DNA of 64,000 nt from contig CP011216.1 in the NCBI GenBank assembly GCA_001029795.1, positions 279,128 to 343,127 on the forward strand, in the 5' to 3' direction. Shown piece by piece: positions 40,423 to 64,000 of the stretch. The stretch's first letter is position 1. Each line of letters opens with the position of its first letter. The notes beneath the pieces are model-generated. The model saw only the letters and a program-made list of their open reading frames with translations, did not search any database and was not told the origin of the DNA. Both the position numbers and the translations under genes were made by a program. Origin of the DNA: a candidate division Kazan bacterium GW2011_GWA1_50_15. Its GTDB lineage: Bacteria; Patescibacteriota; Kazan-3B-28.

Positions 40423-40497
40423 TGGAGCGGGTGAGGAGAGTCGAACTCCCGTCTCTACCTTGGCAAGGTAATATAATAACCGTTATACGACACCCGC
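40423..40497 (-). tRNA. tRNA-Gly (anticodon GCC)
   Basis: Acceptor GCGGGUG/CACCCGC, U73, anticodon loop UUGCCAA, T-loop UUCGACU, CCA encoded. Confidence 0.8.
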
Positions 40498-40499
40498 AT

Positions 40500-40574
40500 T
40501 GGTGCCGAGGGACAGAATCGGACTGTCAACACCACGCTCTTCAGGCGCGTGCTCTACCATTGAGCTACCTCGGC
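40500..40574 (-). tRNA. tRNA-Phe (anticodon GAA)
   Basis: Acceptor GCCGAGG/CCUCGGC, D-arm GCUCAAUGGUAGAGC, anticodon loop CUGAAGA, T-loop UCCGAUU, CCA encoded. Confidence 0.8.
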
Positions 40575-40605
40575 CCTACATCAACCATAATATAGTAAGT
40601 TGCTG

Positions 40606-40681
40606 TGGTGGACGATGCAGGATTCGAACCTGCGACACCTCGGATGTAAACCGAGTGCTCTAACCACTGAGCTAATCGTCC
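40606..40681 (-). tRNA. tRNA-Val (anticodon TAC)
   Basis: Acceptor GGACGAU/AUCGUCC, anticodon loop UUUACAU, T-loop UUCGAAU, CCA encoded. Confidence 0.85.
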
Positions 40682-40774
40682 AAATCTTATGCGGGGCAAT
40701 TCCCAACCGAGTGTTCCCCGCCCGACTGAACGATTCCAGTCGTTCGGACGGGTAACCAGCTGAGCTATGTGCCA
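40682..40774 (-). ncRNA. tRNA-like remnant: canonical tRNA 5' acceptor/D-arm (UGGCACAUAGCUCAGCUGGUUA) fused to two stable hairpins, with no T-arm or 3' acceptor
   Basis: It fills exactly the gap between tRNA-Leu(AAG) and tRNA-Val(TAC). The D-stem closing GAGC is replaced by a 12-bp hairpin (ccgacugaacga..ucguucggacgg) and a 6-bp GC hairpin (gcgggg..ccccgc). Confidence 0.4.
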
Positions 40775-40861
40775 TGGTGGACGAGAGAGGACTCGAACCT
40801 CCACGGGTTTTACCCCACAGCGCCCTTAACGCTGCGCGTATACCAATTTCGCCACTCGTCC
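40775..40861 (-). tRNA. tRNA-Leu with the unusual anticodon AAG (A34), class II
   Basis: Acceptor GGACGAG/CUCGUCC, 3-bp D stem, anticodon stem CAGCG/CGCUG with loop UUAAGGG (U33 then AAG, G37), long variable arm, T-loop UUCGAGU, CCA encoded. Confidence 0.7.
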
Positions 40862-42540
40862 TACTTAGTTTTAATATACCATTCCTGAATGTTGGCGAAC
40901 CGATCAGACAAAGATGAGAGATTAATCCGATCAGTTACCCCCTTCACCTTAGCGTCCACTAGATAAACATACCTAGGCTGATAAAGCAAGATGGCCGGCA
41001 CCAGATCGGCGAAAGCGGTCTGGAACTTGTGGTAGTTAGCGATGGTCTGATTCAAACTAGTGCTTACTCTGGCGGTCTCTAATGAGTTATCAATGTCCTT
41101 GTCGAACTCCACGGCTAGAGCTAAACCGGGGTCTTGGATCTGACTACTATGCCAATAGACGTAGGGATCGGAGTCGGTACCCAGGTCTTGACCAAAAATC
41201 AGCACTTCGTAGTCGCGTGGCCGGATCACCTCTTTGATTAGAGTAGCAGCGTCAAGCTGCTCTACCACAACATCAACCCCAATAGCTTTCCAGCTGCGCT
41301 GGAGAGATTCGGCGATCTGTTTGGACTGAGCATCATCGCGAACGACCATCCGAAAGTTTAGGCGAGTCCCGTTCTTGTCCAGGACCCCATCCCCGTCCGC
41401 ATCGACCCAGCCTGCTCGCTTTAAGACTTCGGCGGCCTTGGTAATACTAAAATCATATTTGGCAATATCTGGGTTATGCCCCCAGAAGCCCGGCAGGACC
41501 GGTGAATCAACCCGATCCGCCGCTCCCCCCTCGACCTGGTCGATGATCTGCTGTTTATTGACCGCGTAAGCCAGAGCCTGGCGCACCGTTTTATCTTTGA
41601 TAGCATTGTTGTCGTTCAGCTGGTTAAAGAAGATTGCCTTATACTGTGGCAAAGAATAGATGTAGCGCACATCGTTCGGGGTGAGATCACTGCCACTCGG
41701 GTCAATATCGATAAAACCAGCGGCGCTGACCGTCCGATTTTTGAAAGCGGCCAAGAGGCTCTTTTCGCTATCGAAGAAAAAGAAGACTAAGCGTTCAATG
41801 TAGGGGGCTTGACCGTAGTAGTGCTTGAACCGAGTTAAGGCGACTGACTCTCCGGGGCTATCTTTCTCTAGCCGGTAAGGCCCGGTCCCGATAATCTTGT
41901 CATCACCGTACGTGGTCTTGAACTCAGACACCGGAATGTCGCGGTAGATGTGTTGAGGAATAATAGGCAACGACATATCGTACAGAAAGAAAGCCGACGC
42001 GCTCGGCAATGTGAATCTAACCGTATAGTCATCGATCTTCTCCGCCCCTACCCCAGCAAATCCCGACTTCAACACACCACGATAATCATCGTTCTGCAAA
42101 ACGTTAATGGTGTAGACGACGTCATCGGCCGTAAATATCTCGTCGTCTTGCCAGAGCACATCGCGACGCAAATGGAAGACATAAGTCTTGCCCTGATCGC
42201 TGATATCCCAAGTCTCGGCCAGGTCGGGCAGCACTTCTCGGCCCGGACTGATACGAGTCAAGCCCGAGTAGACTAACCGAACTAGATCGCGATCAACGCT
42301 GTTGGTCTCTGCCAGTAACGGTTGGAGATAGCGCAGGGTACCAACTAGTCCTTCTACCTGTACGCCCCCACTGGTTGGTTGGCGCTCACCTATCCCCCCA
42401 GGATCGGCGGCCATAATGCCGCTCACCGCGATGACAGTAGCTAGACTTAAAAGCACCCAGCGCTCTGAACGACTGAATTTACGGCTCAACCGACCCAACC
42501 ACACGAATAATCGACCCAGAGCGGCCTGTAAACCGGCCAA
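40861..42540 (-). CDS. ABC transporter substrate-binding protein, family 5 (oligopeptide/dipeptide/nickel type)
   Basis: 559 aa; N-terminal signal/TM then an SBP_bac_5 core (LAETWDISDQGKTYVFHLRRDVLWQDDEIFTADDVVYT). Confidence 0.8.
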   Translation of the reverse strand: MAGLQAALGRLFVWLGRLSRKFSRSERWVLLSLATVIAVSGIMAADPGGIGERQPTSGGVQVEGLVGTLRYLQPLLAETNSVDRDLVRLVYSGLTRISPGREVLPDLAETWDISDQGKTYVFHLRRDVLWQDDEIFTADDVVYTINVLQNDDYRGVLKSGFAGVGAEKIDDYTVRFTLPSASAFFLYDMSLPIIPQHIYRDIPVSEFKTTYGDDKIIGTGPYRLEKDSPGESVALTRFKHYYGQAPYIERLVFFFFDSEKSLLAAFKNRTVSAAGFIDIDPSGSDLTPNDVRYIYSLPQYKAIFFNQLNDNNAIKDKTVRQALAYAVNKQQIIDQVEGGAADRVDSPVLPGFWGHNPDIAKYDFSITKAAEVLKRAGWVDADGDGVLDKNGTRLNFRMVVRDDAQSKQIAESLQRSWKAIGVDVVVEQLDAATLIKEVIRPRDYEVLIFGQDLGTDSDPYVYWHSSQIQDPGLALAVEFDKDIDNSLETARVSTSLNQTIANYHKFQTAFADLVPAILLYQPRYVYLVDAKVKGVTDRINLSSLSDRFANIQEWYIKTK

Positions 42541-46238: not shown

Positions 46239-48296
46239 TCAGTTTACTTGTATAATATCGACCCCGACGCTCAGATCGGCATTTAGCTCCCCATTAAACA
46301 ATGGTTTGGTTTTAGTACCAGCTTCGTCAGCAATACCAAGTGCTGGCGACAGCTTCAGCACACTAACTAGTGTGGTATTGTTGGCTCCTGGCTGTTTCAT
46401 CACATCAAGCTGGTAGTGACTAGTAACTTTGTGAGGCAAACGGTAGTTCACCGTAACGGTCTGGCTCGCACCTGGCTGGGTGGTGAGCCAAAGCCCAAAA
46501 ATGGTTTTATCCCCTTCTTCGATTTGGTCTACCTCGGTGCCATAGTCTTCTCCATCAACCGATATGCGCAGACTACCTTGAGGCACATAGATACGGATGT
46601 AGTCCTTATTGGGACCATCGGGGAAAACATTAACGCCGGTGTGGGTATACTTAAGTTCCACTGACACCGTCACGTCTCCGGTCAGATTCACGTTGGCTGT
46701 GTGATGGATTTCCTCGGCTACTACTTGACTGCTTTTGCGTCCACCGAGATTAGATCTGACCACCGCCAGAAAATCTCCGCCAGTATCGACCGGGACCGTC
46801 CCGGCGACTTGGAGCTGTTCCATCACCGACTGCATTTTAGGACTTCTCATATACAACATCACGTCCTTAGACCCTAACCGAGCCAGGAGGGCCGAACTGA
46901 TCCGCTTCATCTCTTCGCCATTGGCATTTAAGAGTCGGCCTAGAAGTATCGGCGCAAACTCATTTAAGACTTCTTTGGGATTGGCTTTGTCTTTGTCGAT
47001 CAGTTCGATCTGCGCTTGGGTGGCAGTCACAAAGTTATCGGCGGTCAGGGTGAGATCCTTGCCGGCCAAATAGGTTGGTCCAAAGATAGTTAATAAATCT
47101 TTGATCGCCTCGGGATCAATAGCGATAATCCCATCGGCAGTGCCGCCGCCTGCTTCCTCATAGAGCTTTTGGAAAGTTTGAGCCGAGGTCGGGAAATCTA
47201 AGTACCAATTAGCGTCGCGGGTACCGAACGAGGATGTAATGGTCGTAAGCGGCGCCGGCAAAGGCAGTGAGGTGTTGGGGTTTTGACCGTCGATGCGCTG
47301 GGTCATATCGACTAACACGCTTTTGAGTTGACCTTTGTAAACTTCAACCAACATGTAACTCCCAACAAACCCACCGGTAGCTCGGAGTTCGTTATTGTTT
47401 TGATTCAATATCAAATATTGTCTAGGATTATTAAAACCTAGTGCGCCGGGGAGCTCTTTGGCCAGAGTCGCCAGAGTCATAACGGTCGCCTGGAGGGTGG
47501 CAGTTTTAGTTTGAGCGTCGGCGAGCGCTGTGGCATATGCTGGGTCGACTAGGGCTGGGTTAACCGACGCCAACAGAAGATTGGCACGCGAGACTTGGGT
47601 TAACACTCGGTCAAGATTTTGCGAGCTCTTCCCCATCAACCCAACGATCTGAGTTGCTAACTGCTGCGGCTGGTCATTAGCACTCTCTAACCCGTTAAAG
47701 TACTGCCAAGTTGGGGTGAGTGTGTCGACTAGGGTCCGCCCGGCTTGAGCTAGATTATAGCCGCTGTCGATCAGCTTCTGACCAGCGACTACTTTAGAGG
47801 TATCGCTGCCCAACCCAGACAGATAGAGGTTAGTCTGCCCAAGACCGAGAAGTTGTTTTTGGGCTGTGCCAAACAGATTTTCGGCAGCGATGAAGTTGTC
47901 ACGAGCGGCCGAGACATCTTGAGCTAAAACAGCCGCTGAAGCTGCTTCGAGCTTGCTCATCCCCCGACCTGCCAGTTCAGTGATTTGACCCTGGACGCTG
48001 CCCGCTGCTTGAGAGACTAGACCGCCGCCAACGTACAGGGCGATTGCCAGCACCGCTAAGATAGCCAAGCGCAGTCCCATCCACAGCCAAGACAGCGCTG
48101 GGGCCGATACGGCCGCTTCGCCGAAGCTCATGTCGAGCGTGGAGCGGGCGACCTTACGCGTCCGGACCGCCGGGGATAACCCAGGTTCACGAAAGCCCAC
48201 CCCCGAGGCGGTTTTTGGTTTGATGTAATAGTATCGCTTAGTCCCCTTTGGCATGAGCCGCTTGTTCAATGACCGCCAACGTCTGATGGGCAGCAT
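46239..48296 (-). CDS. DUF4012 domain protein (N-terminal TM, large extracytoplasmic domain); start uncertain (alternative Met at 48131)
   Basis: 685 aa; the core RQYLILNQNNNELRATGGFVGSY...DGIIAIDPEAIKDLL is diagnostic of DUF4012, which is often found beside polysaccharide/glycosylation genes. Confidence 0.75.
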   Translation of the reverse strand: MLPIRRWRSLNKRLMPKGTKRYYYIKPKTASGVGFREPGLSPAVRTRKVARSTLDMSFGEAAVSAPALSWLWMGLRLAILAVLAIALYVGGGLVSQAAGSVQGQITELAGRGMSKLEAASAAVLAQDVSAARDNFIAAENLFGTAQKQLLGLGQTNLYLSGLGSDTSKVVAGQKLIDSGYNLAQAGRTLVDTLTPTWQYFNGLESANDQPQQLATQIVGLMGKSSQNLDRVLTQVSRANLLLASVNPALVDPAYATALADAQTKTATLQATVMTLATLAKELPGALGFNNPRQYLILNQNNNELRATGGFVGSYMLVEVYKGQLKSVLVDMTQRIDGQNPNTSLPLPAPLTTITSSFGTRDANWYLDFPTSAQTFQKLYEEAGGGTADGIIAIDPEAIKDLLTIFGPTYLAGKDLTLTADNFVTATQAQIELIDKDKANPKEVLNEFAPILLGRLLNANGEEMKRISSALLARLGSKDVMLYMRSPKMQSVMEQLQVAGTVPVDTGGDFLAVVRSNLGGRKSSQVVAEEIHHTANVNLTGDVTVSVELKYTHTGVNVFPDGPNKDYIRIYVPQGSLRISVDGEDYGTEVDQIEEGDKTIFGLWLTTQPGASQTVTVNYRLPHKVTSHYQLDVMKQPGANNTTLVSVLKLSPALGIADEAGTKTKPLFNGELNADLSVGVDIIQVN

Positions 48297-49419
48297 CTGT
48301 CCAATTGAATTGGCGAGCGCGTAATCTACCGCGTTCGATCAGCCGCTGGCGCAAGATCGGATCGTTTATAATCGTTCGCATATGCTCGGCCAAACCGGCC
48401 ACGTCTGTTGGGGCGATGGTGAGCGCAGCATCTCCCGCCACTTCGGGCAGAGCCGAGACATCGCTGGTAATGACCGGGCAGCCGCTAGCAAAAGCCTCTA
48501 GCACCATTAGGCCGAAACCTTCGTAAAACGAGGGGAAGACCAACGCTGTGGCTGAAGCCAACAGAGCGATCTTTTCAGCCTCACTGACTTGCCCGGTAAA
48601 GACTATCCGTGTCTGCAAACCCAGATCTTGCACAAGTTGATAAAGGTCTGACGAAAGCCAACTTTTACTGCCAGATACTACCAGATTTATTGTATCAGAA
48701 TAACGCTGCTGCAGTTCGTGCATAGCTCGGACTATCAACTGCAGATTTTTACGAGGTTCGACACTGCCGACGTAGTAGAAATAGCGTGCTGGGACCTGGA
48801 ACTTCTCTTGCACTAATGTGACTTGCTGGGGCGTGGGCGGGACAAAATACTCTTCGCCTACTCCTTCATAGACACGAACTATCTTGCCCTCTGGCACGTG
48901 CAATAGACGGACCAGATCTTGTTTAGTAGATTCAGATACAGCAATGACCCTATCCGAGGTGCGCGCCTCGTAAGGATAATTCATCTGCCATTGCCAGATA
49001 CGGGATGAGAGCGGGTAGAACTGGGGGTAGATATAAAATATTAGATCATGAAAGGTCGTTACCTTAGCGCATCGTCTCGAGAGTGGCAGCAACATAGGCG
49101 AAGGCATCCACATGACGTTAAGTCCCCCGCAAACAACGTCTGCCTTGGGCCAATCCAATGGCTTAAAGACCGCGTGCAAGAGGATAGGAAAGTTCACCCA
49201 GCGCAATTTTTTTACCTCCACATTGGCAGCCCGCAGATAGGGCTGCTCGGCCAACAGTTTATCAAGGCGTTGGTCGATATCCTTGTACGATACATAGAAC
49301 AGTACATATGTATTGCGAGTATCGATAGCTAACAAGTGGCGCAAGAGCTGCAGAGTGTACTGTTCAACTCCGCTGATCTTGCCAGTCAGTAAGCCTCTGA
49401 TATCGACTCCGATGCGCAT
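48238..49419 (-). CDS. Glycosyltransferase family 4 (GT-B); start placed at MRIGVDIRG
   Basis: YYVGSVEPRKNL...SFYEGFGLMVLEAFASGCPVITSDVSALPEVAGDAA. The track ORF (to 49491) would overlap the upstream GT4 gene by 62 nt. Confidence 0.8.
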   Translation of the reverse strand: MRIGVDIRGLLTGKISGVEQYTLQLLRHLLAIDTRNTYVLFYVSYKDIDQRLDKLLAEQPYLRAANVEVKKLRWVNFPILLHAVFKPLDWPKADVVCGGLNVMWMPSPMLLPLSRRCAKVTTFHDLIFYIYPQFYPLSSRIWQWQMNYPYEARTSDRVIAVSESTKQDLVRLLHVPEGKIVRVYEGVGEEYFVPPTPQQVTLVQEKFQVPARYFYYVGSVEPRKNLQLIVRAMHELQQRYSDTINLVVSGSKSWLSSDLYQLVQDLGLQTRIVFTGQVSEAEKIALLASATALVFPSFYEGFGLMVLEAFASGCPVITSDVSALPEVAGDAALTIAPTDVAGLAEHMRTIINDPILRQRLIERGRLRARQFNWTDAAHQTLAVIEQAAHAKGD

Positions 49420-49429
49420 ACGTGGTGAA

Positions 49430-50584
49430 TTATGAATTAGGGGTTGGGGCTGACAGTCGGGACAGATGTTCGGCCCATTGGGTTTCGACAAATTCCCGTA
49501 TCTGCCGTTGGAAGTGAGCCTGGTCGAATTGCTCGGCGTGAGCCCGGATTATGGATGGCGAGAAACTCACTAGCTCGAACCGACGGACAGCGTCCGCTAA
49601 CGAGCCTGGGGACTGTTCAGAGAAGAAGATGCCGGTCTGGCCTTCTACTACAGTTTCCAGCGCCCCGCCCGCTCGGTAGGCTATCACTGGCTTACCGGCG
49701 GCCATGGCCTCCAGGGGGACAATACCGAAGTCCTCTTCCTGCGGGAACAACACAGCCTTGCATCGCAGAAACTGCTGGGCGGTCTCTTCGTCTGACAACC
49801 GACCCAAAAATTCAGTCTTGGGAGAGCGGGCTAGTTTTTTGAGGCGGGCTATCTCCGGCCCTTCGCCGATAATCTTCAGCGGCAGTCCCAATCCATTGAA
49901 TGCCTGCACCGCGATATCGGTGCGCTTGTATCCGATCTGCCGGCCGACTACGAGATAAAAATCACCGGGGGTACTTTCACCTTGGAATCTAGCAAAGTCT
50001 ACCGGCGGGTAGATAACCGTGGATTCGCGCTCATAGTATTTTTTTATCCGTCCGGCAGTATTTTTTGAGTTAGCTACGAATACGTCCACTCGGTCAGCGG
50101 CAACTCGGTCCCAGATGCGTAAGCGATGCACCAGCGAGGGCATAGCCAATTTTATTAATGGGTCTAGAACCCCTAACTGCTTTTGGCGCAGATATTCATG
50201 GTAGTGACTCCAATAGTAGCGAGTGGGGGTGTGACAGTAGCAGATATGAAGGGTTTCTGGCTTAGTCAAAATCCCCTTAGCCTCGGCGTGGGCCGAGGAG
50301 GTCACTAGGTCGTAGCCGTCTAGGTTAAACGATTCGAACACGGCCGGCCGAATGGCCGGAAAGAGTTGCTGTTTGTAGCGGAGGGGTGACTTTTGCAGAT
50401 AACTCGTAATGACCCGCCGGCCGCGGAGCTCCGGAAAGGCCTCGGCCTTAAACACTGATGTAAAGATATCGGCCCTAGGGAAAATTTCGGCAAAGTTTAA
50501 AATGACGCGTTCGGCCCCGCCTCGACTGGTCAGCCAGTCGGCCACGATCGCTACCCTTAATTCGTCAAATTGTTTCATCCCCAT
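49430..50584 (-). CDS. Glycosyltransferase family 4 (GT-B)
   Basis: 384 aa; EDFGIVPLEAMAAGKPVIAYRAGGALETV with the E-x7-E motif. Confidence 0.8.
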   Translation of the reverse strand: MGMKQFDELRVAIVADWLTSRGGAERVILNFAEIFPRADIFTSVFKAEAFPELRGRRVITSYLQKSPLRYKQQLFPAIRPAVFESFNLDGYDLVTSSAHAEAKGILTKPETLHICYCHTPTRYYWSHYHEYLRQKQLGVLDPLIKLAMPSLVHRLRIWDRVAADRVDVFVANSKNTAGRIKKYYERESTVIYPPVDFARFQGESTPGDFYLVVGRQIGYKRTDIAVQAFNGLGLPLKIIGEGPEIARLKKLARSPKTEFLGRLSDEETAQQFLRCKAVLFPQEEDFGIVPLEAMAAGKPVIAYRAGGALETVVEGQTGIFFSEQSPGSLADAVRRFELVSFSPSIIRAHAEQFDQAHFQRQIREFVETQWAEHLSRLSAPTPNS

Positions 50585-50621
50585 TCTCCATCATTCATGA
50601 TTCATCATTCATAATTCGTGC

Positions 50622-52001
50622 TTAATAGCTCCCCTTCCGGGTTAAGACCGCGCCGATGGTCTGCAGGATAATTTTAATATCAAGAAGTGGCGACCAGTGT
50701 TCAATGTAGAAAGTATCGAGCCCCACATACTCGTCGAACGAGATATCGCTCCGACCGGAGACCTGCCACGGGCCGGTCAGACCGGGCTTAACCAATAACC
50801 GGCGGCGGGCGGCATCACTATACTCTGCCACTTCGTTGGGTAGCGCCGGCCGGGGACCGACCAAGCTCATCTCGCCTTTCAACACATTAAACAACTGGGG
50901 CAGTTCATCTAAGCTGGTTTTACGAATAAACTTACCCACGCGGGTTATCCGCGGGTCATCTTTGAGTTTAAATAACGGGCCATCCGCCTCGTTGCGTTCC
51001 CTAAGTTCCTCCAGCATCCGCTCGGCCCGCTCGCCTCCCAGCCCCGGACTCATCTCGCTGTACATCGATCGAAACTTATAAAAAGTGAACGGTTCGCCCA
51101 ATTCGCCAATCCGCTTCTGGGCATAGATCACTGGGCCTTTCGAATCCAGTTTAATAGCAACAGCGACCACCGCCATTACCGGCAGAGCCACGACCATTCC
51201 GATACATGTAGCCCCGATATCAAATAAACGCTTTGCTACCCTCCCCCAGCCAGAGAGCGGAGTAGGTGAAAGTTCGATAATGGGATAGCCTACCAATGTG
51301 TCCACCGTGATGTGGGAGGTGTAGAGACCAGTCAAGCTTGGCACATACTGCAGAGTCACATCGTGGTCCTCACACCAGCGAATGAATTTTAACATCTGTT
51401 CGCCGGTAAGTTCATGGCCGATAATGACGCGATCAGGCCGATGCTGGGCCAAGACCGAGAGGTCCAGCTCGGCCATCACTCCAACTAGTTTCTGCCCCGG
51501 CTGCGCGGATCTGACTTGGCCGCCCAAATCATCAGCCATCTTCCCGCTAGCGATCAGGGCAACTCGCTCAACACCAGTGCCGGCGTACTGCAGCCACTGT
51601 TTGAAGTAGTTGACTATGGCTCGGCCTAGAAGTACGAACACTACACTAAACACCCAGAAGTAGGTCACGATCAGGCGCGAGAAGAAACTGGTCTTGGCGA
51701 TAAATAAACCGATAACAAAAACGGCCAATGCCACCGAAGTGGCGATCAAGACCTTCCCGGCCAGCTCCCAAGGGTTCCTAAACCCGCGGAATCGGTACAA
51801 CCCAAACCCAAAGAACGACACTAGCCAGAGAGGGGCCAACTCCATCACCAACCGGAGGTAGTCCGGAAATGGCAGAATATAGATGATAGGCACAAATTGC
51901 CACTGGAGCCGGAGCCAGTAGGCGCCAACAAAAGTCAGTACCACCATGACATAATCGAGCGGTACCAATAGCAGGGTGAAAAATTGATTGAATCGTCTCA
52001 T
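50622..52001 (-). CDS. Polyprenyl-phosphate sugar phosphotransferase (WbaP/PssY-type bacterial sugar transferase); start placed at MRRFNQ to clear tRNA-Val
   Basis: C-terminal catalytic domain ...YKFRSM...DELPQLFNVLKGEMSLVGPRP...KPGLTGPWQVSGRSD. The track ORF (to 52073) overlaps the tRNA. Confidence 0.85.
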   Translation of the reverse strand: MRRFNQFFTLLLVPLDYVMVVLTFVGAYWLRLQWQFVPIIYILPFPDYLRLVMELAPLWLVSFFGFGLYRFRGFRNPWELAGKVLIATSVALAVFVIGLFIAKTSFFSRLIVTYFWVFSVVFVLLGRAIVNYFKQWLQYAGTGVERVALIASGKMADDLGGQVRSAQPGQKLVGVMAELDLSVLAQHRPDRVIIGHELTGEQMLKFIRWCEDHDVTLQYVPSLTGLYTSHITVDTLVGYPIIELSPTPLSGWGRVAKRLFDIGATCIGMVVALPVMAVVAVAIKLDSKGPVIYAQKRIGELGEPFTFYKFRSMYSEMSPGLGGERAERMLEELRERNEADGPLFKLKDDPRITRVGKFIRKTSLDELPQLFNVLKGEMSLVGPRPALPNEVAEYSDAARRRLLVKPGLTGPWQVSGRSDISFDEYVGLDTFYIEHWSPLLDIKIILQTIGAVLTRKGSY

Positions 52002-52028
52002 AAAATCTAAGCCCCCAGACCGGCTCTC

Positions 52029-52105
52029 TGGTGGGCTCGCCCAGATTCGAACTGGGGACCTTCCCCACGTCAAGGGAACGCTCTAACCAACTGAGCTACG
52101 AGCCC
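52029..52105 (-). tRNA. tRNA-Val (anticodon GAC)
   Basis: Acceptor GGGCUCG/CGAGCCC, D-arm GCUCAGUUGGUUAGAGC, anticodon loop UUGACGU, T-loop UUCGAAU, CCA encoded. Confidence 0.85.
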
Positions 52106-52813: not shown

Positions 52814-53352
52814 CTGCTCTTTGCCAGTGTGCGATTGCCTCTCCCCAGTTTTGGGGAAGGGAGGAAAGTCCGGACACCACCCTGGAACAGAAAAGTCGCT
52901 AACGGCGACCCCTCGATGTATTTCGGGGAGGGAAAGTGTCACAGAGACAATACTAAACTTTCTTGAGAGGCATCTTATGGTTTTCTCTTAGCAGGGAAGG
53001 AGAGCAGCGAGCTTGTCCTAACTCTGTCAGGATGGGCTTTTGCCCACGAGTGTCGAGAGGAAACCGTAGGTTGCCTCTCGAGATTGTTAAAAGGTGAAAA
53101 GCGGTAGGGTGTTGAAATGTTGGAAAGCGGGCCAATCCCGCCAACCGGCCTCCAAGCTACCTACCGGGCTCCGTCGCGAGACGGATGTTCTGGTAAACCC
53201 TTTTCGGTGCAAGTTGGGCTGGACCGTTCATATCAATTGGTTTGTTCCGGGCAAGGTATGAAGGGGCCCCAACGCTTGATCCTGTCAGCAATGGCAGGGC
53301 TAGATAGATAATCGCTAAAACAGAATCCGGCTTACAGCTGGCAAAGAGCATT
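52814..53352 (+). ncRNA. rnpB: RNase P RNA (bacterial type A-like) with ~150 nt of extra sequence in the specificity domain
   Basis: P4 5' strand GGAGGAAAGUCCGG (52850-52870) and P4 3' strand ACAGAAUCCGGCUUA (53320-53335). P1 gcucuuugccag/cuggcaaagagc closes the molecule. A GGUGAAAAGCGGUAGGG block follows the repeat. The track ORFs across it look spurious. Confidence 0.8.
52990..53095. repeat. Copy B of the ~95-nt hairpin-rich structured repeat, embedded inside rnpB
   Basis: aggagagcagcgagcttg-[tcct..agga]-[gggc tttt gccc]-acgagtgtcgagagg-loop-cctctcgagattgttaaaa. It is collinear with 28020-28120 and carries paired (compensatory) substitutions in every stem. Confidence 0.7.
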
Positions 53353-56635: not shown

Positions 56636-59600
56636 TTAAATAATGGTGATAGTCAGGGTACCACTGTAGTCGCCCACCGTGCGGGACTCGAGATCAGCTA
56701 GGTCAATGGTCGGTAAGAAATAGAAACCGCCCTTGCCGTTGATATAGGTACTACCCGGACCGGTATAGGCGTTCCTGTCAGCATCCAGCGTGGCGCCAGT
56801 TTGGCCGGTCATATCGGTTTTGCTGGATGCGAATGAGCCGTTTAATACTGTAGTCGTTGATTTCCAAGTAATGTCGGTACCGGGGATGGTGTCGCCGCCA
56901 CCGCTTTTCGGCATCGACATTGAGCCGACCGATACAGTGTAACTGGTTTGATTGCCTCGTTTATCCCAGAAGACAAATTCCTCGCCAGCCTCGAAGGGAT
57001 AACTTAGTGTCCCCCCACCGCCCTTGGTGTAAGCCCCTAAATAAACATCGGCCGGGGCGGTAGCCATCTCCAGATCGGTGGCCGCCGAGGTGGTCAGCGC
57101 TGGATAACTATTGTTCGAATCCTTTGACACTGTCGCCCAACTGCCACCGGCCGCGGCGCTGTTTTCCATATATTGCAGACGGAAATAATAGGTAGTACCG
57201 GGCGCGACTATCACGCCGGGATTACGTTGGATAGTAAACTCGTGTTCGTAGTTGGTCGAGGCCGCCGGGTCAAAGGTACTTCCCGACCCAGCCCCGGTGC
57301 CGGAATCCTCATTGTGCCGCCCGGCCGTGGGCGAGTTGTTAGTCAGCCGGACATTGACGATGGCGTCGTCATCGGTCACGTTGGCTCCATTGTAGTAGCG
57401 CCAGGCTACCGTGTTCCCGCCCTGCGCCTCGACATCGGTGGCACCAGTAAAGCTGGTTGAGGTATCGAACTGGAGTTTGTATTTCACATCCGTCGCACCC
57501 ACGCCGTTGGCTTCGCCCACCACAACCCGTAGTTTGATGGCATTCCCCGGGTAAACAATGCGAGTGCTGCTGGGTGGGGTGCTGGTCGAATCATTGTCTT
57601 CATCGCTCAAGGCATCTCCGGTTGTCGTCTCGCCGCCATTAGTGGTATTGGGGTCGGCCACATCTTCGGCGTCGAACCAACGCCAGTTTTTGGAGCCGGG
57701 TTTGTAGGGCTTGCTTTTAGCGATGACCGTGTCAACATAGGTCGGTAAATTATCAGTGTCGGCAATGGTGACCGGCGCGCTGTGTGTATGGTCGTCCACC
57801 GCTATAGTCACGCCGGGCGGCGGGGCGGGCATATCGAAACCGGCCGATGACGAAGCGCCCCCGGTCGTAATATCGGAAACCGTGTGGCTATGCGAACTAG
57901 CCCCGCCCGAGCCGTCGGCGGTATACGATGATTGAGCCTCTAGATACCGGCGGTTGAAAGTCTGCGAGCTGCCGGAACTTACCGTCCAAGCGCTCCCGGG
58001 GTCGGCCGTGAACATCGCTACCAGATTAGCCGGGATAGCACCCGTGCTATCCTTTTTGCCCATGATCACCTCAACATGAATCGGTACATGGTTACCGGTG
58101 GTCGAAGTGCCGCTACCGGTATGATTATGGGCGGCGGCGGCTCCAGTAAAAGGCGGTCCGGTTGTACCGCCCACGGCACCGCCGGATGTGACTGTGCCAC
58201 CAGTGAGCGTGATGTCGTGATCGTGGGCAGTGTTTGACCCGCCGGTGGTTTCCCCATCCGGCCCGCCCCGAACAAAAGTATTATCCTGTGCCGAGTATCG
58301 TGTCCAGCCAGTTGGGACAGTAGCATCGAACATGGCAATGATGTTTTGCGGTAGCGTGCTGGGCATCCCGCTGTCGTACTGGACTACCTGTAATTCGCGG
58401 TAAGACGGTAACAAACTCTTAGATGAGGCTGTGGCACTCCAACTGTGCGTGTGTTGATCGCCGGCCACTGTGGTGCCCGATTGGGAGATGCTCAAAGACA
58501 AATTGTCAGTAATCGTCCCTGGCGTGGCGGTGGGGGTATGGGTATCGGCTCCGCCCCACGGACCGTAAGCTGAATTGCCTCGCGGGAATTTTTGGTAAAA
58601 GATATCGGTCGCGTCATTGGAAACCGAGCTCCACCCCGCTGGCATCGTGATCAATGTCCCATCCCAAAACAACATCATTCTAACCTCGGCGATATCCAGA
58701 GCCGACGTGTCGGTGAAATTGACTCCCAGCATATCGGCGTTGGCGCTATCATACCAGGTAGCAAATATCTTATACGGCGTAACGCTCCCGGCTCGAACAT
58801 AGATATAGTTGCCAGCGGAACTGCTGACCGGTCCCTGCTCGCTCCCCCAGGTTGAGCCGCCAGTGGTGGATTTTTTGTAATAGACACTCATCGAGCTGGC
58901 TACCGTACCGCGCAAATAAAAGGCGTAAAGATCGCCATTCTGCTGGTCGATGGCCACAGCGCCACCAAGTCCGGCAGTACCGATGTCGGTGTAGACATTT
59001 GTGTTGGTACTCCAACTCCTACCCGACTCGTCGTACCAATAGGTTTCAATGTCCCCGCCACTAGTGGCCGGATCGTTATTGCCCACCACATAGATGTCGC
59101 CGGTATTTTTGTTTAGTGCCCCGCCCCAGGCCACATCGTAGGTGGTGTGATAGGCAAAACTACTATCGATGGTGGTCCAACTCCCGTCCCAGGTTGGCGC
59201 GCTAGCATCGTAGACCATCGAGACTAGATCGGTGGCGCTGGTATCGTGAACCACTATCATCACATCTCCGCCAGACAGCGGGAAGATCTGCCCGTGGTCG
59301 ATGCCGCCAGCCATAGAAAAGCCGGTATCGCTCCAACTACTGCCACCAACGTCGGCTGCCGAGTAAACTTTGTAGCTGGCCGTGGCATCGCCCCAGAACC
59401 ACAGTGCATACAATTTGTTGTCGGTAGACTTGATAATCGAGGGCGATCCGCCCGAGGCATAGACCATGTCAACCGTGTTGTCGCCTATCTTGGTCCAGGT
59501 CGTGCCGGTGGGTGAGAGAGTGTCGCTAGCAGTATCTAGCCGCTTGAAATAGACATCGTCATCGTTCGTACCCGCCGTTTCGTGGGCCACCATATAGATA

Positions 59601-59974
59601 TAAGTGCCGCTGGTGTCCCCCGGCGTCCACTGGTCGTACCAGACGGCAATGTCCATCCAATCTTGGTCAGTCCCTAGCTCCACCTCTCCGCCCCAACTGG
59701 CGCCACTATTGGTGGTTTTTTTGTAAGCGGGCGTATCGGTGGTGTCATCAATATAAAAAGCGTAGCCGGTAGTATCGGACACCCAGACCACCGATGGGCT
59801 GGGACCGTACTGGCCAGTCAGATTGAATAGATCGCCGTTGATGGTGATTTGGGTGGCTTGGGCTGGCAGGACATTGAATCGCAGAGGGGCGAATTGAAAC
59901 CCGCCAAACACCATAACTACCGTCAAGACAACGGTCATCAATCGCCCGATTGTACCTATCCATCTCCTCTTCAT
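56636..59974 (-). CDS. Giant secreted protein: N-terminal BNR/Asp-box beta-propeller, central Gly/Thr-rich region with repeated His-x-His motifs, C-terminal Ig/FN3-like beta domains
   Basis: 1112 aa; signal peptide. Asp-boxes TTNSGASWGG, SAADVGGSSWSD, STTGGSTWGS. HxH repeats AHDHDITLTGG, AAHNHTGSG, NHVPIHVEV, SSHSHTVSD, DDHTHSAPV. Confidence 0.7.
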   Translation of the reverse strand: MKRRWIGTIGRLMTVVLTVVMVFGGFQFAPLRFNVLPAQATQITINGDLFNLTGQYGPSPSVVWVSDTTGYAFYIDDTTDTPAYKKTTNSGASWGGEVELGTDQDWMDIAVWYDQWTPGDTSGTYIYMVAHETAGTNDDDVYFKRLDTASDTLSPTGTTWTKIGDNTVDMVYASGGSPSIIKSTDNKLYALWFWGDATASYKVYSAADVGGSSWSDTGFSMAGGIDHGQIFPLSGGDVMIVVHDTSATDLVSMVYDASAPTWDGSWTTIDSSFAYHTTYDVAWGGALNKNTGDIYVVGNNDPATSGGDIETYWYDESGRSWSTNTNVYTDIGTAGLGGAVAIDQQNGDLYAFYLRGTVASSMSVYYKKSTTGGSTWGSEQGPVSSSAGNYIYVRAGSVTPYKIFATWYDSANADMLGVNFTDTSALDIAEVRMMLFWDGTLITMPAGWSSVSNDATDIFYQKFPRGNSAYGPWGGADTHTPTATPGTITDNLSLSISQSGTTVAGDQHTHSWSATASSKSLLPSYRELQVVQYDSGMPSTLPQNIIAMFDATVPTGWTRYSAQDNTFVRGGPDGETTGGSNTAHDHDITLTGGTVTSGGAVGGTTGPPFTGAAAAHNHTGSGTSTTGNHVPIHVEVIMGKKDSTGAIPANLVAMFTADPGSAWTVSSGSSQTFNRRYLEAQSSYTADGSGGASSHSHTVSDITTGGASSSAGFDMPAPPPGVTIAVDDHTHSAPVTIADTDNLPTYVDTVIAKSKPYKPGSKNWRWFDAEDVADPNTTNGGETTTGDALSDEDNDSTSTPPSSTRIVYPGNAIKLRVVVGEANGVGATDVKYKLQFDTSTSFTGATDVEAQGGNTVAWRYYNGANVTDDDAIVNVRLTNNSPTAGRHNEDSGTGAGSGSTFDPAASTNYEHEFTIQRNPGVIVAPGTTYYFRLQYMENSAAAGGSWATVSKDSNNSYPALTTSAATDLEMATAPADVYLGAYTKGGGGTLSYPFEAGEEFVFWDKRGNQTSYTVSVGSMSMPKSGGGDTIPGTDITWKSTTTVLNGSFASSKTDMTGQTGATLDADRNAYTGPGSTYINGKGGFYFLPTIDLADLESRTVGDYSGTLTITII

Positions 59975-60073: not shown

Positions 60074-61294
60074 TCACTTCCTCCCTCCCGGCCGATACAG
60101 CGAAGTTCTGCCAGAAACTAGATACCGCCACCATGCCGGCATGGGTTCGCGTCGTCGTTTTTCGGATAATTCACTCGGCGACAACAACCCCACCGGAATA
60201 AACAACTTATCTCCTGCGTTAATGGCGTGCGGCCAAGTTAACTGATTAAACCGGATCAGCTGTTGCGGCAGAACATTGGTATGCTCCGCAATGTGCATTA
60301 CCGTCTCGCCTTTTTGGACAGTGTGCGTAATTGTCTTCAGGCGATACTTCCGTCGGTCCAGCCACCACACCCACCAGCGGTACTTCAGCCAAGCCAGCCC
60401 CAACCCTAAGAGCCACCAGCCAAGATATTTGGTTCCCACCCAAAAGCTAAATTTATATTCGAACCGTTCGTCCGGCAATTTTTTGACCGTACCGTCTAGT
60501 TGCACTTCGTCCACTGTCCAAGTGTGAGCTACAACCGCAATCCGGTAGTAGCCGAATTTGGGCGCTGGTCTATCCCACACTTTGGTAATGTTCATCACAC
60601 TCCCCGGCAGATAGGTACCATTCTCATTCATCTCTTCGGTACGACTGCCGAATATGCCCTGCAGTTTAATATCCAGCGCTGGCTCAATGTTGATATTGCT
60701 CTCGTTCTTGGCGGTGATGTTAAAAGTTAGTCCGCTTTTGTCAATTTTGTAATCAACTTTATCAAAACTAAGTTTGCGGGTTATCTCCCCCGGCACGGTG
60801 ATATATACCCGAGCCCCGACTCGGATCTGGAAATTGATGTTGCCGCCGGCTTGACCGCCCGCTCTTTCATAAATCACAATCCCACCACTGTGCTGACCCG
60901 GCCCGGTGTCCCCCGGCACGGTAATAGTAAAGGGGACCTCGGCGCTGGTATTCGGCGCCAGTATCAAGTTAGTTTGCTCTAATTTAATCCAGCTCCCCAC
61001 CTCCCGATTATCGGCGGCGGTTTTCACCAGTGTATATCCGCCCTCGGTGGTATTGACGGCATCAAGCGCTTCCACAACCACGGATTTAGTTCTGGGAGAA
61101 TTATTATTAATAACTAATGTGTCGGTCGTACTCTCTCCCGGCCGGAGAGTATGGACAAACCAACTCCGGGGTGGCTGGCCCTCCACTGGCTTAGGGATAA
61201 CCCCCACCCCACCGGTTTGGGCCAACGCAAAAATTGGCAGCCACCATGCTGCCAAAACTGCCGACAGAGCCATTCCGATCACAGGTTTAGTCAT
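60074..61294 (-). CDS. Surface protein paralog 1: signal peptide - ~300-aa beta-rich domain (DUF916-like) - TM helix - one C-terminal LysM
   Basis: 406 aa; SP MALSAVLAAWWLPIFALAQT, ...PRSWFVHTLRPGESTTDTLVINNNS..., TM WWLLGLGLAWLKYRWWVWW, LysM HTVQKGETVMHIAEHTNVLPQQLIRFNQL...GDKLFIPV. Confidence 0.65.
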   Translation of the reverse strand: MTKPVIGMALSAVLAAWWLPIFALAQTGGVGVIPKPVEGQPPRSWFVHTLRPGESTTDTLVINNNSPRTKSVVVEALDAVNTTEGGYTLVKTAADNREVGSWIKLEQTNLILAPNTSAEVPFTITVPGDTGPGQHSGGIVIYERAGGQAGGNINFQIRVGARVYITVPGEITRKLSFDKVDYKIDKSGLTFNITAKNESNINIEPALDIKLQGIFGSRTEEMNENGTYLPGSVMNITKVWDRPAPKFGYYRIAVVAHTWTVDEVQLDGTVKKLPDERFEYKFSFWVGTKYLGWWLLGLGLAWLKYRWWVWWLDRRKYRLKTITHTVQKGETVMHIAEHTNVLPQQLIRFNQLTWPHAINAGDKLFIPVGLLSPSELSEKRRREPMPAWWRYLVSGRTSLYRPGGRK

Positions 61295-62769
61295 CGCTTC
61301 CGTTGGCGCTTATTGGATTTGGGCGGGATTTTAATTTGCTGGCCCGGCCGCAACTTATACGGCGGCTTAATTCTGTTGTATTCGGCCAGCGCGGTCATCG
61401 GCACACCGGCAAAATCAGCTACATCCCCTAAAGTGTCTCCAGTTTCAGCGATTAATACCGTGGGCTTAGCTGAACCCCCGGAACGACCGGGTTTGCCTAG
61501 TGTATCCACCATCGCATGGGATGTGCGCCGACGGAAGAGGTGCCCAACAATACTCAACGCAAATTCCTTATCCGAGAACATCTCCCGCTGTTTGACGGTC
61601 CATTCGGCCCCGCGATGATATCCAATCGGCACCAACAGTACATCCCCAGTTTTAAGTTCGTAAGGCCATTTCAGCAGATTGAACTTAGCCAATACCCGCG
61701 CATCCACTCCCAATTTGTTAGCCACCTTCATCAAGGTATCGCCGCTGACCACTTTGTACATCTCGGTCTTCACCCGCAAGCGCCGCATAATAATGGTGTA
61801 CAGCCACACCGATCGGATAAGATAGAGCACCAGTACGACCAGCAGAATGGTCATCAGCTCGCGCCACGGCCAGAGCCAGAAAATGTAGGTTTGCTTAATA
61901 ATCTCATCCGGCAACATTGTCTTGGTGCCGTCTTTGTTAAACTGCTCCTTCTCGCCCGTGTGGATGTCGAACTCAGCTTTGAATCTCCCAAAATAAGCTG
62001 CCCGCTTCATCCATTTTACATCCACATTCTTGGTCTCACCGCGGGAGACGGCGGTGGTCTGAACGGCCTCTTGTTTACCGACACTACCAAATATCCCCCG
62101 TATGGTGGTATCAATGATTGGAGCGATGGCTACGTTGCCATGGTTAGAGACATTAAAGGTAAGGAATAGCGCTCGCCGATTGCCGTAGTCAATCCGGTGA
62201 GTGATTTTATTGATCTGCAGATCGCGATTGATCTCACCCGGCACATTTACTACTAGCATTGCACCGATATGCACTCGCACCTTTACTCCTCCACCCTTGG
62301 TCTCGCTCGGCGGGGACTTTTCTTGGATGAAGATACCGCCGACATGCTCCCCTACATTGGCAGTTGATGGAATTTTTAAAGTCAGCCCGATCTGAACCGC
62401 GCTATGGGGGGCTAGGGACACTTCACTACGGTCCAACTCTAGCCAATAGCCCGGCTCGGGTTTTTCTGGCGTGTCGGCTCCGGCTTTGACAATATTATCT
62501 TCCTCATCAACCGTATAGCCGGACGGGAAGATCAGGACGGTGGCGGCCTCGTCTTTATTGTTATTAATGATCATCTGGTCTCGCACCTCGGTGCCTTCAG
62601 CCGCGGTATAGATGAACCAACTTCTGGCCTTACCTTCTTTGTCTGGTACCGGAAAGATGGACAGCCCACCTACACCCAAAGCGTTGGCTGATGACGCACC
62701 CACAAACAGGCCCAAATTCAGGGCCAATAGCCACCAACCGAATTTCTGCTTCAATCGTAAACCGGCCAT
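61291..62769 (-). CDS. Surface protein paralog 2: signal peptide - DUF916-like domain - TM helix - two C-terminal LysM domains
   Basis: 492 aa; same architecture as 60074-61294 (ARSWFIYTAAEGTEVRDQMIINNNK...), TM LMTILLVVLVLYLI, LysM1 YKVVSGDTLMKVANKLGVD, LysM2 VLIAETGDTLGDVADFAGV. Confidence 0.65.
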   Translation of the reverse strand: MAGLRLKQKFGWWLLALNLGLFVGASSANALGVGGLSIFPVPDKEGKARSWFIYTAAEGTEVRDQMIINNNKDEAATVLIFPSGYTVDEEDNIVKAGADTPEKPEPGYWLELDRSEVSLAPHSAVQIGLTLKIPSTANVGEHVGGIFIQEKSPPSETKGGGVKVRVHIGAMLVVNVPGEINRDLQINKITHRIDYGNRRALFLTFNVSNHGNVAIAPIIDTTIRGIFGSVGKQEAVQTTAVSRGETKNVDVKWMKRAAYFGRFKAEFDIHTGEKEQFNKDGTKTMLPDEIIKQTYIFWLWPWRELMTILLVVLVLYLIRSVWLYTIIMRRLRVKTEMYKVVSGDTLMKVANKLGVDARVLAKFNLLKWPYELKTGDVLLVPIGYHRGAEWTVKQREMFSDKEFALSIVGHLFRRRTSHAMVDTLGKPGRSGGSAKPTVLIAETGDTLGDVADFAGVPMTALAEYNRIKPPYKLRPGQQIKIPPKSNKRQRKR

Positions 62770-62822: not shown

Positions 62823-63989
62823 TCAAGATGATACTTTGCGCCAGACCACGGCCAGCGCGTCACTGTAGACCGCCTCCCAGCCACCACTGTCATTCAGATA
62901 TTTATTCAGCGGTCGCCCGCTGCCGGTGAAGACAGTATCAACCTGCCATTTTGCCAATGTCACCAATGAGGTTTCGGCGTCATTGATATTACTGATGTTT
63001 TTGAACTCATCAAAGATTTTAACTGTAGGTGTCGTCCAGATGGCCATGCGCCCGTCAATGAATACTTGCCTCTCCGGCAACTGCCAGACCAAATAGCCGC
63101 CCCAATTGTATTCGTTGTACATCCGCTCTCCTCCGGGATGCTCTTTCAGATACTGGACAGCGTCATAAGGGTAGCCGTAGGATCGGCCATACACCGCCGG
63201 ATCAAACATCACCGGCGAAAGTCGCGCCCACTGCCATGCCCCCACTCCACCGACCACCAGCACCAGTCCCAGTACCCCGACCGTGGTCTGGAGGAGCTTT
63301 GGCATACCGTGCCTGAGCACCCCGTCCAGTTGTTCGGCCAAAAGCGGCATCGCGGCGATCGCGAAAAGGGGCAGATGGCGCCAAGCGGTTGTACTGATAA
63401 AAAATACCGTAATGGCCAACACCAGCTTGGTCAGATCGAACTTCCAATGATTCGCCCATAGCAACCCCAGCAACAGAATAACTACTAGTACTACATTGTA
63501 ACTACCGACATTGGTCAAACTCAGCGGTAGCCATTCGGAGATATTGGCCAATACATCTTTGTCGGTGAAGGTCTGCCATAGCTCCAGATAGACCCGCCAG
63601 CCATTGGGGTTAAATAAAGTAGCTACCACACTCACGATCGCCACCCCGGCCAATTGCCACAGTTGGCGCCAATTGAGTAGTTCGACAGATAAACGGGTTG
63701 GCTTTTTACCCCGTAAGATGTGCCGCAGTACCTCTCCCGCCCAGAAAATTCCGATAATCAAAAAGCCGGCCGAGAATCCGCCGTGCAGGTTTGCCCATGC
63801 TGCAAAAATTAGCGGGAGCCAGTAAATTAATTTACTGACGGGTTGGCGGCGCCAAGTGAACAGAAGATAGAGTACCCCTACCAACCCCAACAAGGTGAAC
63901 ATTTGCGGCCGCACCCCCACCACGAACCACGACACCAAGAATCCAGCCAGTGCGACAATAATTCGAATTAGCGGCGAGGTCTTCACCAC
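62823..63989 (-). CDS. Polytopic membrane protein, GT-C-like (PMT/ArnT/DUF2079-type) glycosyltransferase candidate; N-terminus may continue beyond the window
   Basis: 388 aa (in window); 8+ TM helices then a soluble C-terminal domain (YGYPYDAVQYLKEHPGGERMYNEYNWGGYLVW). Confidence 0.55.
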   Translation of the reverse strand: MVKTSPLIRIIVALAGFLVSWFVVGVRPQMFTLLGLVGVLYLLFTWRRQPVSKLIYWLPLIFAAWANLHGGFSAGFLIIGIFWAGEVLRHILRGKKPTRLSVELLNWRQLWQLAGVAIVSVVATLFNPNGWRVYLELWQTFTDKDVLANISEWLPLSLTNVGSYNVVLVVILLLGLLWANHWKFDLTKLVLAITVFFISTTAWRHLPLFAIAAMPLLAEQLDGVLRHGMPKLLQTTVGVLGLVLVVGGVGAWQWARLSPVMFDPAVYGRSYGYPYDAVQYLKEHPGGERMYNEYNWGGYLVWQLPERQVFIDGRMAIWTTPTVKIFDEFKNISNINDAETSLVTLAKWQVDTVFTGSGRPLNKYLNDSGGWEAVYSDALAVVWRKVSS

Positions 63990-64000
63990 ACCGGCCGCCA

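Follow-up and report, generated by a model that had tools for sequence, protein, structure and literature searches.

When a protein begins with a cleavable signal peptide and carries LysM domains behind its only transmembrane (TM) helix, on which side of the membrane do those domains lie, and what could they do there? The question is posed by two adjacent genes in the 64,000-nucleotide (nt) stretch of contig CP011216.1 from the candidate division Kazan bacterium GW2011_GWA1_50_15 (positions 279,128 to 343,127), which we call the window. LysM is the textbook extracellular module for binding cell wall or chitin, and a preliminary description of the window had seen a paradox in this arrangement, to be escaped if the N-terminal segment is something other than a signal peptide, if the LysM domains act inside the cell, or if they are exposed to another compartment. 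Comparative sequence analysis strongly supports the placement of both products, named P2 (two LysM domains) and P1 (one), as type I membrane proteins of a WxLIP (DUF916) branch in the Patescibacteria, or candidate phyla radiation (CPR), and the LysM domains of their family are very probably cytoplasmic. The explanation that we favor, with moderate confidence, is that these proteins hold a scaffold outside the cell and a membrane-proximal LysM that binds a lipid-linked precursor inside it.

A tandem pair of signal-peptide proteins

The region named in the preliminary description corresponds exactly to two open reading frames (ORFs) on the minus strand, 61291-62769 and 60074-61294. Their features, in order of transcription, are listed below (AF2, AlphaFold2; aa, amino acids).

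61291-62769, minus strand: P2, WxLIP-like, with two LysM domains after a TM helix (ORF of 492 aa; Pfam, AF2, Foldseek)
62680-62769, minus strand: P2 signal peptide, aa 1-30, predicted cleavage ANA/L (basic n-region, hydrophobic core, AxA)
61870-62679, minus strand: P2 ectodomain, aa ~31-300, two beta-sandwich domains, one WxLIP PGBD-like and a second Ig-like (AF2, Foldseek, profile)
61777-61866, minus strand: P2 transmembrane and juxtamembrane helix, aa 302-331 (core 305-327, then RRLRVK)
61618-61773, minus strand: P2 LysM1, aa 333-384, directly after the TM helix (Pfam, model, matches to LysM structures in the PDB)
61321-61464, minus strand: P2 LysM2, aa 436-483 (best Pfam stretch 443-482; model pLDDT ~88-90)
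61294-61320, minus strand: P2 polybasic C-terminal tail KSNKRQRKR (K/R-rich C termini conserved in the family)
60074-61294, minus strand: P1, WxLIP-like, with one LysM domain after a TM helix (ORF of 406 aa; Pfam)
61220-61294, minus strand: P1 signal peptide, aa 1-25, predicted cleavage ALA/Q (core with a Kyte-Doolittle value of 1.99, AxA; kept in orthologs)
60359-60427, minus strand: P1 Trp-rich TM helix, aa 290-312, then DRRKYRLK (Wimley-White octanol scale)
60194-60325, minus strand: P1 LysM, aa 324-367 (Pfam, 32.9 bits)

The two-LysM gene, described earlier as the second paralog, precedes the one-LysM gene, and the stop codon of P2 shares 4 nt (ATGA) with the start codon of P1, an overlap that suggests co-translation. 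The proposed tandem paralogy holds, as BLASTP aligns P1 with P2 at 31% identity over 366 aa (E = 3e-55), in an alignment that extends from the ectodomain across the hydrophobic helix and through the first LysM. A partial NCBI protein record of a Patescibacteria group bacterium matches P1 at 100% identity.

Both N termini have the basic n-region, hydrophobic core, and AxA site of a signal peptide, in agreement with the preliminary description. In P2, a basic n-region (R5, K7, K9) and a hydrophobic h-region lead to the site A28-N29-A30/L31, and the corresponding site of P1 is A23-L24-A25/Q26. In 16 of the 16 complete N termini of the family, a basic n-region and a hydrophobic core are present, and the small residues at positions -3 and -1 fall in the same alignment column.

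A single hydrophobic segment follows the ectodomain in each protein, again as described, and none of the hydrophobicity scales detected a further TM-grade segment in either tail. The P2 segment (305-327) is strongly hydrophobic (Kyte-Doolittle, 2.43; Hessa sum, -1.47; Wimley-White octanol, -13.8 kcal/mol) and has four K+R residues on its C-terminal side versus two on its N-terminal side. The P1 segment (290-312) scores poorly on the Kyte-Doolittle scale and reaches -14.6 kcal/mol on the Wimley-White octanol scale; P1 orthologs have conventional hydrophobic helices at this position. The helices had been called Trp-rich, which is true of P1, but in P2 the tryptophans lie mostly in FWLWPW, just N-terminal of the helix. 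A hidden second TM helix in the P2 linker (FALSIVGHLF) was considered and rejected, since its hydrophobic residues number only ~10 and every threshold is missed. On the family alignment, we also rejected C-terminal sorting signals of the sortase (LPXTG-like), exosortase, or other kinds: in the 'LPDE' before the TM helix, the L-P is not conserved (VKDE and KPDV in relatives), the motif lies ~15 residues from the helix, and the helix is not terminal.

The ectodomain and the LysM domains

The beta-rich domain had been likened to DUF916 and linked to the DUF916 proteins of Firmicute WxL loci, and both comparisons are borne out. Pfam WxLIP_PGBD/DUF916 (PF06030, cutoff 27.3 bits) matches P1 at 33.6 bits and P2, just under the cutoff, at 24.6 bits, with scores in relatives of up to 59.9 bits. 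An AlphaFold2 model of P2, built from an 18-sequence family alignment (mean predicted local distance difference test [pLDDT], 80.5), contains beta-sandwiches at 36-176 and 184-299, an unbroken 30-residue helix at 302-331, LysM1 at 333-384, a helical linker, and LysM2 at 437-481. When this model was compared with the PDB by Foldseek, the Enterococcus faecium WxLIP structures 9i25_C and 9i1y ranked first (E = 1e-15), the alignment extending over ~272 columns, with targets 251 to 267 residues long. Because these top structural matches are joined by a direct match of the family profile to the EfmWxLIP1 sequence (E = 6e-7), the ectodomain of P1 and P2 is a genuine WxLIP homolog. The RSWF...NNN motif named in the preliminary description is present and is conserved in the family alignment. 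Pfam returned no DUF3324/HBD match in P1 or P2, the second domain being recognized at the level of the fold only.

The next structural matches after WxLIP were the chaperones of chaperone-usher pili, CfaA, PapD, FimC, and Caf1M (E = 1e-9 to 1e-11). This likeness of the P2 ectodomain fits a strand-complementation, chaperone-like mode for WxLIP ectodomains.

That the C-terminal domains are LysM, one in P1 and two in P2, also stood up. Pfam LysM (PF01476, cutoff 20.9 bits) matches P1 at 32.9 bits, over profile positions 1-43 of 43, and P2 at 68.8 bits over two stretches, and the predicted strand-helix-helix-strand (beta-alpha-alpha-beta) fold at P2 333-384 and 437-481 (pLDDT ~80-90) is that of LysM. 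Family matches to LysM structures in the PDB reach E values as low as 4.5e-17, the best being the glycan-binding Ecp6, YaaH, and NlpC/P60. NCBIfam matches of P1 and P2 are all limited to the LysM module and are far under the family cutoffs. The LysM core motifs (GDT/GET, a conserved Asn, and a P-Y loop) are kept in the family, GET replacing GDT in the P1-type orthologs.

The tails that follow the TM helix are 169 aa long in P2 and ~94 aa in P1. That of P2 has a net charge of +17 and an isoelectric point (pI) of 10.3, and in 18 of 18 close homologs the tails have a net charge of +12 to +35, with pI values of 10.0 to 11.4. Each paralog type has a conserved signature of its own: P1-type proteins have a post-LysM motif, MPxxWRYLLSxxxSLYHP, absent from P2-type proteins (P1 aa 368-406, window positions 60074-60193, minus strand), and P2-type proteins have a conserved EW...GxLFRRR linker between their two LysM domains.

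A widespread family with variant tails

The preliminary description had known of no such fusion and had called for a search in other genomes. A profile of the ectodomain and TM helix only, containing no LysM columns, was therefore searched against 1.84 billion cluster representatives and recovered 13,613 proteins (E <= 1e-3), of which 812 reached E <= 1e-30. In 114 of the best 150 representatives (all E < 1e-50), LysM directly follows the helix, so that the WxLIP-LysM fusion predominates in a large CPR clade. LysM was called in these 150 by a custom hidden Markov model, with which Pfam agreed on the subsets checked. The commonest form is P1-like, of ~380 to 400 aa with one LysM, and the full layout is common to 16 full-length homologs. 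Twelve genome loci came from the candidate division Kazan and other metagenome-assembled genomes of Patescibacteria, including a 560-kb chromosome.

Tails in the family are basic and 100 to 250 aa long, contain one to three LysM domains, or take the form LysM-TM-LytR_C. Eight proteins (P0054, P0060, P0062, P0087, P0091, P0104, P0124, and P0171) have the last of these, in the order signal peptide-WxLIP-TM-LysM-TM-(150-250 aa)-LytR_C, a sub-architecture that unites a surface scaffold, a cytoplasmic LysM loop, and the kind of C-terminal domain usual in LCP wall-glycopolymer ligases; LysM is missing from P0126 and P0173, whose layout is otherwise the same. P0213 (567 aa) is a WxLIP-TM-LysM-TM protein that ends in the globular domain of a T2SSG pseudopilin, with no canonical prepilin-peptidase motif found at its second helix. 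In P0050, P0052, P0055, P0057, P0109, and P0119 (~570 to 630 aa), hydrophobic segments lie between an N-terminal part of ~230 aa and the WxLIP unit that the profile matched, and the proteins end in a TM helix without LysM. P0050, the only one of these six run against Pfam, has two WxLIP_PGBD stretches, so that it, at least, is a tandem duplication.

Which side of the membrane

The topology paradox is real and extends to the whole family, in which the signal peptides, the distribution of charge, and the parity of the domains all place LysM inside. Averaged over the 114 representatives with LysM, K+R number 5.32 in the 15 residues that follow the TM helix and 1.68 in those before it. The C-terminal side is the more basic in 106 cases, the two sides are equal in 8, and the bias is reversed in none. 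LysM1 starts a median of 12 residues past the hydrophobic core, and in the model of P2, helix 302-331 runs straight into LysM1 at 333.

Variants with a second helix provide a further test of orientation. In 19 representatives, a strong second TM segment (TM2) after LysM gives the layout signal peptide-WxLIP-TM1-LysM-TM2-C-terminal domain, and in eight of the nine of these that were scanned, the region beyond TM2 ends in LytR_C. In wall-glycopolymer ligases of the LCP-LytR_C type, no TM helix separates LytR_C from the extracytoplasmic LCP domain that precedes it (PMC11481543). In P0213, it is the T2SSG pseudopilin domain that takes up this position. The charge bias of TM2 is opposite to that of TM1, with 5.16 K+R before and 2.89 after the segment. 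LysM would accordingly occupy a positive loop between the helices of these variants, with extracytoplasmic-type domains on both outer flanks; were LysM outside, the signal peptide, the WxLIP domain, and LytR_C would all have to be cytoplasmic.

Of the three ways out first offered, the charge bias, the signal peptides, and the two-TM variants favor the one in which LysM acts intracellularly. An N-terminal segment that does not serve as a signal peptide is disfavored by the conserved signal-peptide features, by the extracytoplasmic homolog of the ectodomain, and by the one-sided charge of the TM helix. Neither finding that would have overturned the preliminary reading emerged: the C-terminal domains are true LysM, and no sequence evidence sets them outside. 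A hairpin of two helices before LysM, considered for P0116 and P0143, was rejected, each having a single uncharged stretch of ~29 residues that includes the conserved pre-TM strand.

A conserved cassette

Across the genome loci, the genes lie in a cassette ordered as a polytopic membrane protein, a WxLIP protein with two LysM domains (P2-type), a WxLIP protein with one (P1-type), and a large surface protein, and cassette genes are 30 to 50% identical between loci. The partner genes in the window are the following.

62823-64000, minus strand: upstream polytopic membrane protein, cut by the end of the window (~106 N-terminal residues missing; no in-frame stop before the end)
56636-59974, minus strand: downstream surface protein of 1112 aa with an N-terminal hydrophobic anchor or signal (synteny)

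The P2-type gene is present in 12 of the 12 loci, and a P1-type gene accompanies it, as in the window, in L001, L003, L004, and L005. Judged by this retention of both types in the cassette of related loci, the duplication that produced P1 and P2 is old and maintained. Immediately upstream of the P2-type gene, 11 of the 12 loci encode a polytopic protein of ~500 aa (37 to 45% identity). A conserved DPD in its first loop might indicate a GT-C-like glycosyltransferase, which is only a guess. Downstream, 9 of the 12 loci encode a homolog of the 1112-aa protein that corresponds to its C-terminal ~700 aa. The 1112-aa protein may end in a WxL-like domain, to judge from one sub-threshold match to Pfam WxL (PF13731; E = 0.012; 16 bits versus a cutoff of 25 bits). 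A scan of 56-64 kb for promoters and terminators returned little beyond a weak promoter-like site in the intergenic gap that precedes P2.

Two other regions of the 1112-aa protein are distinctive, and neither has a Pfam match. The conserved part at aa ~480-760 contains five H-x-H motifs (QHTHS, AHDHD, AHNHT, SHSHT, and DHTHS), which are possible metal sites. BNR/Asp-box-like SxxGxxW motifs occur in the N-terminal ~430 aa, a stretch that several orthologs (700 to 726 aa) lack.

In more distant loci, a single-LysM WxLIP gene stands beside genes for a secreted protein of ~225 aa and a protein of 1000 to 1300 aa.

L013, 7305-7988 and 3333-7238: distant-locus pair
L014, 2219-2887 and 4047-7097: distant-locus pair

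The ~225-aa and >1000-aa proteins share a C-terminal domain of ~200 aa (48 to 72% identity) with GWTVSL/NWTLSL and DWTL/HWEL motifs, and this shared W-x-L domain has no significant match to Pfam WxL or to the PDB. In Firmicute WxL loci, genes for a small WxL protein, a large WxL protein, and a WxLIP form a cluster (PMC10599100). The gene arrangement of the distant CPR loci resembles this cluster, and the pair could be the CPR counterpart of the small and large WxL proteins.

What the LysM domains might do

Under the favored explanation, the topological part of which is strongly supported, a cleavable signal peptide exports the two-domain Ig-like ectodomain, a single helix spans the membrane, and the LysM domains and polybasic tail stay in the cytoplasm. 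By analogy with 9i25, in which WxLIP is bound to WxL, the ectodomain would retain the large surface protein encoded with it at the wall, or act as its chaperone, which is the part that WxLIP plays for WxL proteins. The cytoplasmic LysM would bind a lipid-linked wall precursor containing N-acetylglucosamine (GlcNAc) at the inner leaflet, either Lipid II or another undecaprenyl diphosphate (Und-PP)-glycan, and such binding would position the surface complex, or control it, at the sites of wall or glycan precursor synthesis. Such a precursor is the most likely ligand on present reasoning. With a median of 12 residues separating it from the hydrophobic core, LysM is held against the membrane. According to the account of Delerue et al. 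2022 given in bioRxiv 10.64898/2026.07.09.737436, the Lipid II to which the LysM of SpoVID binds is reached at the outer forespore membrane, on the side of the mother cell. A cluster for glycan assembly on a lipid carrier (Bac_transf, two GT4 genes, and DUF4012) lies 8 to 14 kb from the cassette and is in line with a lipid-linked ligand, although suggestive only.

Several points weigh against this explanation. The identity of the ligand is reached purely by reasoning, the retained LysM core motifs are compatible with glycan binding and do not prove it, and the 64-kb window contains no mur genes. High pI is common in extracellular LysM domains as well, so that the overall charge of the tail does not by itself discriminate between the two sides of the membrane. 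P0077 (500 aa) has a weak second hydrophobic segment, ILPIPNILVYLFAPVV (Kyte-Doolittle, 1.82), between two LysM domains and may, if this segment spans the membrane, have LysM on both sides. As for the partners, the upstream polytopic protein has no match in Pfam, NCBIfam, or the PDB (phmmer; 12-sequence profile versus the PDB), and no Pfam WxL match was found in 13 relatives of the 1112-aa protein (C-terminal pieces of 259 and 199 aa from 10 to 14 homologs). Two family profiles (A3 and A7) returned nothing relevant from the PDB, their alignment to each other by hhalign was not significant, and the AlphaFold2 model of the large neighbor, built from five sequences, was too poor for a fold search (pLDDT, 44).

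The foremost alternative, possible but doubtful, is a cytoplasmic LysM tail that binds no glycan and serves as a protein adaptor, for instance to dock a partner in the cytoplasm or to regulate the complex, or as a basic tail for binding membrane (anionic lipid) or nucleic acid. All of the topology evidence is shared with it. The tails are extremely basic (pI 10.0 to 11.4), with runs of K/R at their ends, and P1-type proteins have GET for GDT as well as the conserved C-terminal motif MPxxWRYLLSxxxSLYHP. There is also a precedent for a cytoplasmic, non-glycan LysM in Kbp, a BON-LysM protein of the cytoplasm whose LysM is part of a K+-binding fold and which is among the weak PDB matches (7pvc, E = 0.078). 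Against these points, the core motifs are well kept, the Pfam scores lie in the usual range of glycan-binding LysM, the PDB matches are headed by LysMs that bind glycan (Ecp6, YaaH, and NlpC/P60), and the strict juxtamembrane placement (median of 12 residues) suits a membrane-anchored ligand over a soluble partner.

It is very unlikely that LysM is extracellular and binds peptidoglycan, either because the signal peptide is nonfunctional and the helix Nin-Cout or because the tail is translocated unconventionally. LysM is overwhelmingly an extracytoplasmic wall or chitin module, and basic LysM domains are typical of wall binders. Yet this orientation disregards the conserved AxA signal peptides, would make the WxLIP ectodomain, a homolog of a secreted protein, cytoplasmic, along with the LytR_C or pseudopilin domain of the 3-TM variants, and conflicts with a positive-inside bias that holds in 106 of 114 cases and is never reversed; moreover, the TM helices are strongly hydrophobic stop-transfer segments. 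Still less probable, even though many Patescibacteria live attached to host cells, is the export of the whole protein, with the C-terminal helix entering the membrane of another cell and the LysM tail of an epibiotic CPR bacterium contacting the wall or interior of its host: the in silico argument that the WxLIP TM helix enters the host and not the bacterial membrane (PMC10599100) is itself speculation, the 23-residue helix with its RRLRVK-type cluster is a classical Sec stop-transfer signal, and the 3-TM variants with alternating charge bias could not plausibly be delivered in this way.

Implications

If the type I topology is correct, the majority architecture of a large CPR protein clade sets LysM against the membrane on its cytoplasmic side, and the automatic label is probably wrong in the location it implies for the P1/P2 family. 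Database names are generic, either "LysM peptidoglycan-binding domain-containing protein" or "DUF916 domain-containing protein." Full-text literature searches returned no description of a DUF916/WxLIP-LysM fusion, of the P1/P2 CPR family, or, when searched likewise, of bacterial cytoplasmic LysM. Both building blocks are already known, and there is one studied precedent for LysM at the cytoplasmic face. The WxLIP/WxL surface-display system, described almost wholly in Lactobacillales and Bacillales, would be extended to the Patescibacteria.

Should the tail bind lipid-linked precursors, the isolated case of SpoVID and Lipid II would become a common strategy for sensing or capturing precursors and would hint at how ultra-small, host-dependent bacteria position their surface machinery. 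More tentatively, LysM might have a widespread and unrecognized intracellular role in Patescibacteria, with a juxtamembrane LysM that captures or reads Lipid II or an Und-PP-glycan and so physically couples precursor supply inside the cell to the placement of adhesin or surface complexes outside it. The LytR_C variants would then be single polypeptides that touch precursor inside and wall outside.

Other features of the window

The window is chromosomal, since it contains genes for ribosomal proteins, SecY, EF-Tu, and EF-G, tRNAs, and RNase P RNA. Two very large ORFs downstream of these protein genes, which were not scanned, were taken as rpoB and rpoC. The remaining features are the following.

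46239-52073, minus strand: glycan assembly cluster (Bac_transf phosphoglycosyl transferase, 50622-52073; two GT4 genes, 48238-50584; DUF4012, 46239-48296)
52819-53350, plus strand: bacterial class A RNase P RNA, 532 nt versus a 367-position model, 173.6 bits
54131-56569, plus strand: predicted lipoprotein of 812 aa (LLVGC lipobox, three PKD domains, one Ig-like domain, repetitive C-terminal half)
39804-40861, minus strand: tight cluster of seven tRNAs (Leu x3, Cys, Gly, Phe, Val); the gene immediately upstream encodes an SBP_bac_5 solute-binding protein (40861-42540)

There is an overlap between tRNA-Val (52029-52105) and the TTG that is listed as the start of the Bac_transf ORF, and the true start is therefore probably further downstream. 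From its length relative to the model, the RNase P RNA carries sizeable insertions. The gene for the 812-aa predicted lipoprotein is convergent with the cassette and has no syntenic counterpart in the related loci.

Comparison with known systems

The closest relatives are the Firmicute WxLIPs (EfmWxLIP1; PDB 9i1y and 9i25), which likewise have a signal peptide and, to judge by the model of P2, two tandem Ig-like beta-sandwiches followed by a single TM helix; like them, P1 and P2 are encoded near a large surface protein. Firmicute WxLIPs consist of three parts only, PGBD, HBD, and the C-terminal TM helix (PMC10599100). Whereas the helix is the last part of those proteins, it is followed in P1 and P2 by a basic LysM tail. 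The CPR proteins differ further in having no Pfam DUF3324/HBD match and no demonstrable WxL partner, in their lineage (Patescibacteria), and in a cassette that contains two paralogous WxLIPs and a conserved polytopic membrane protein.

The chaperones of chaperone-usher pili (PapD, FimC, CfaA, and Caf1M) have the same two-Ig-domain fold and, like WxLIP, complement a beta-strand of their partner. The similarity is at the level of the fold only (9 to 14% identity), and these chaperones, unlike P1 and P2, are soluble periplasmic proteins of diderms with no TM helix and no LysM.

Canonical LysM proteins (AtlA/AcmA-type autolysins, NlpD, MltD, YneA, and fungal Ecp6) share with P1 and P2 the Pfam domain, for which these two score normally, and its predicted fold. 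Their LysM is outside, after a signal peptide or an Nin-Cout anchor, in contrast to that of P1 and P2, which follows an Nout-Cin helix and would lie inside.

SpoVID of Bacillus subtilis (TIGR02907), a morphogenetic protein of the spore coat with LysM at its C terminus, is matched by P1 and P2 in the LysM module only (23.1 bits versus a cutoff of 169.85 bits) and, unlike them, is a soluble cytoplasmic protein without a signal peptide, TM helix, or WxLIP domain. On the secondhand account cited above, SpoVID would have in common with P1 and P2 a LysM that operates on the cytoplasmic side of a membrane, beside a peptidoglycan precursor anchored there by its lipid, and it is the mechanistic model for the favored explanation.

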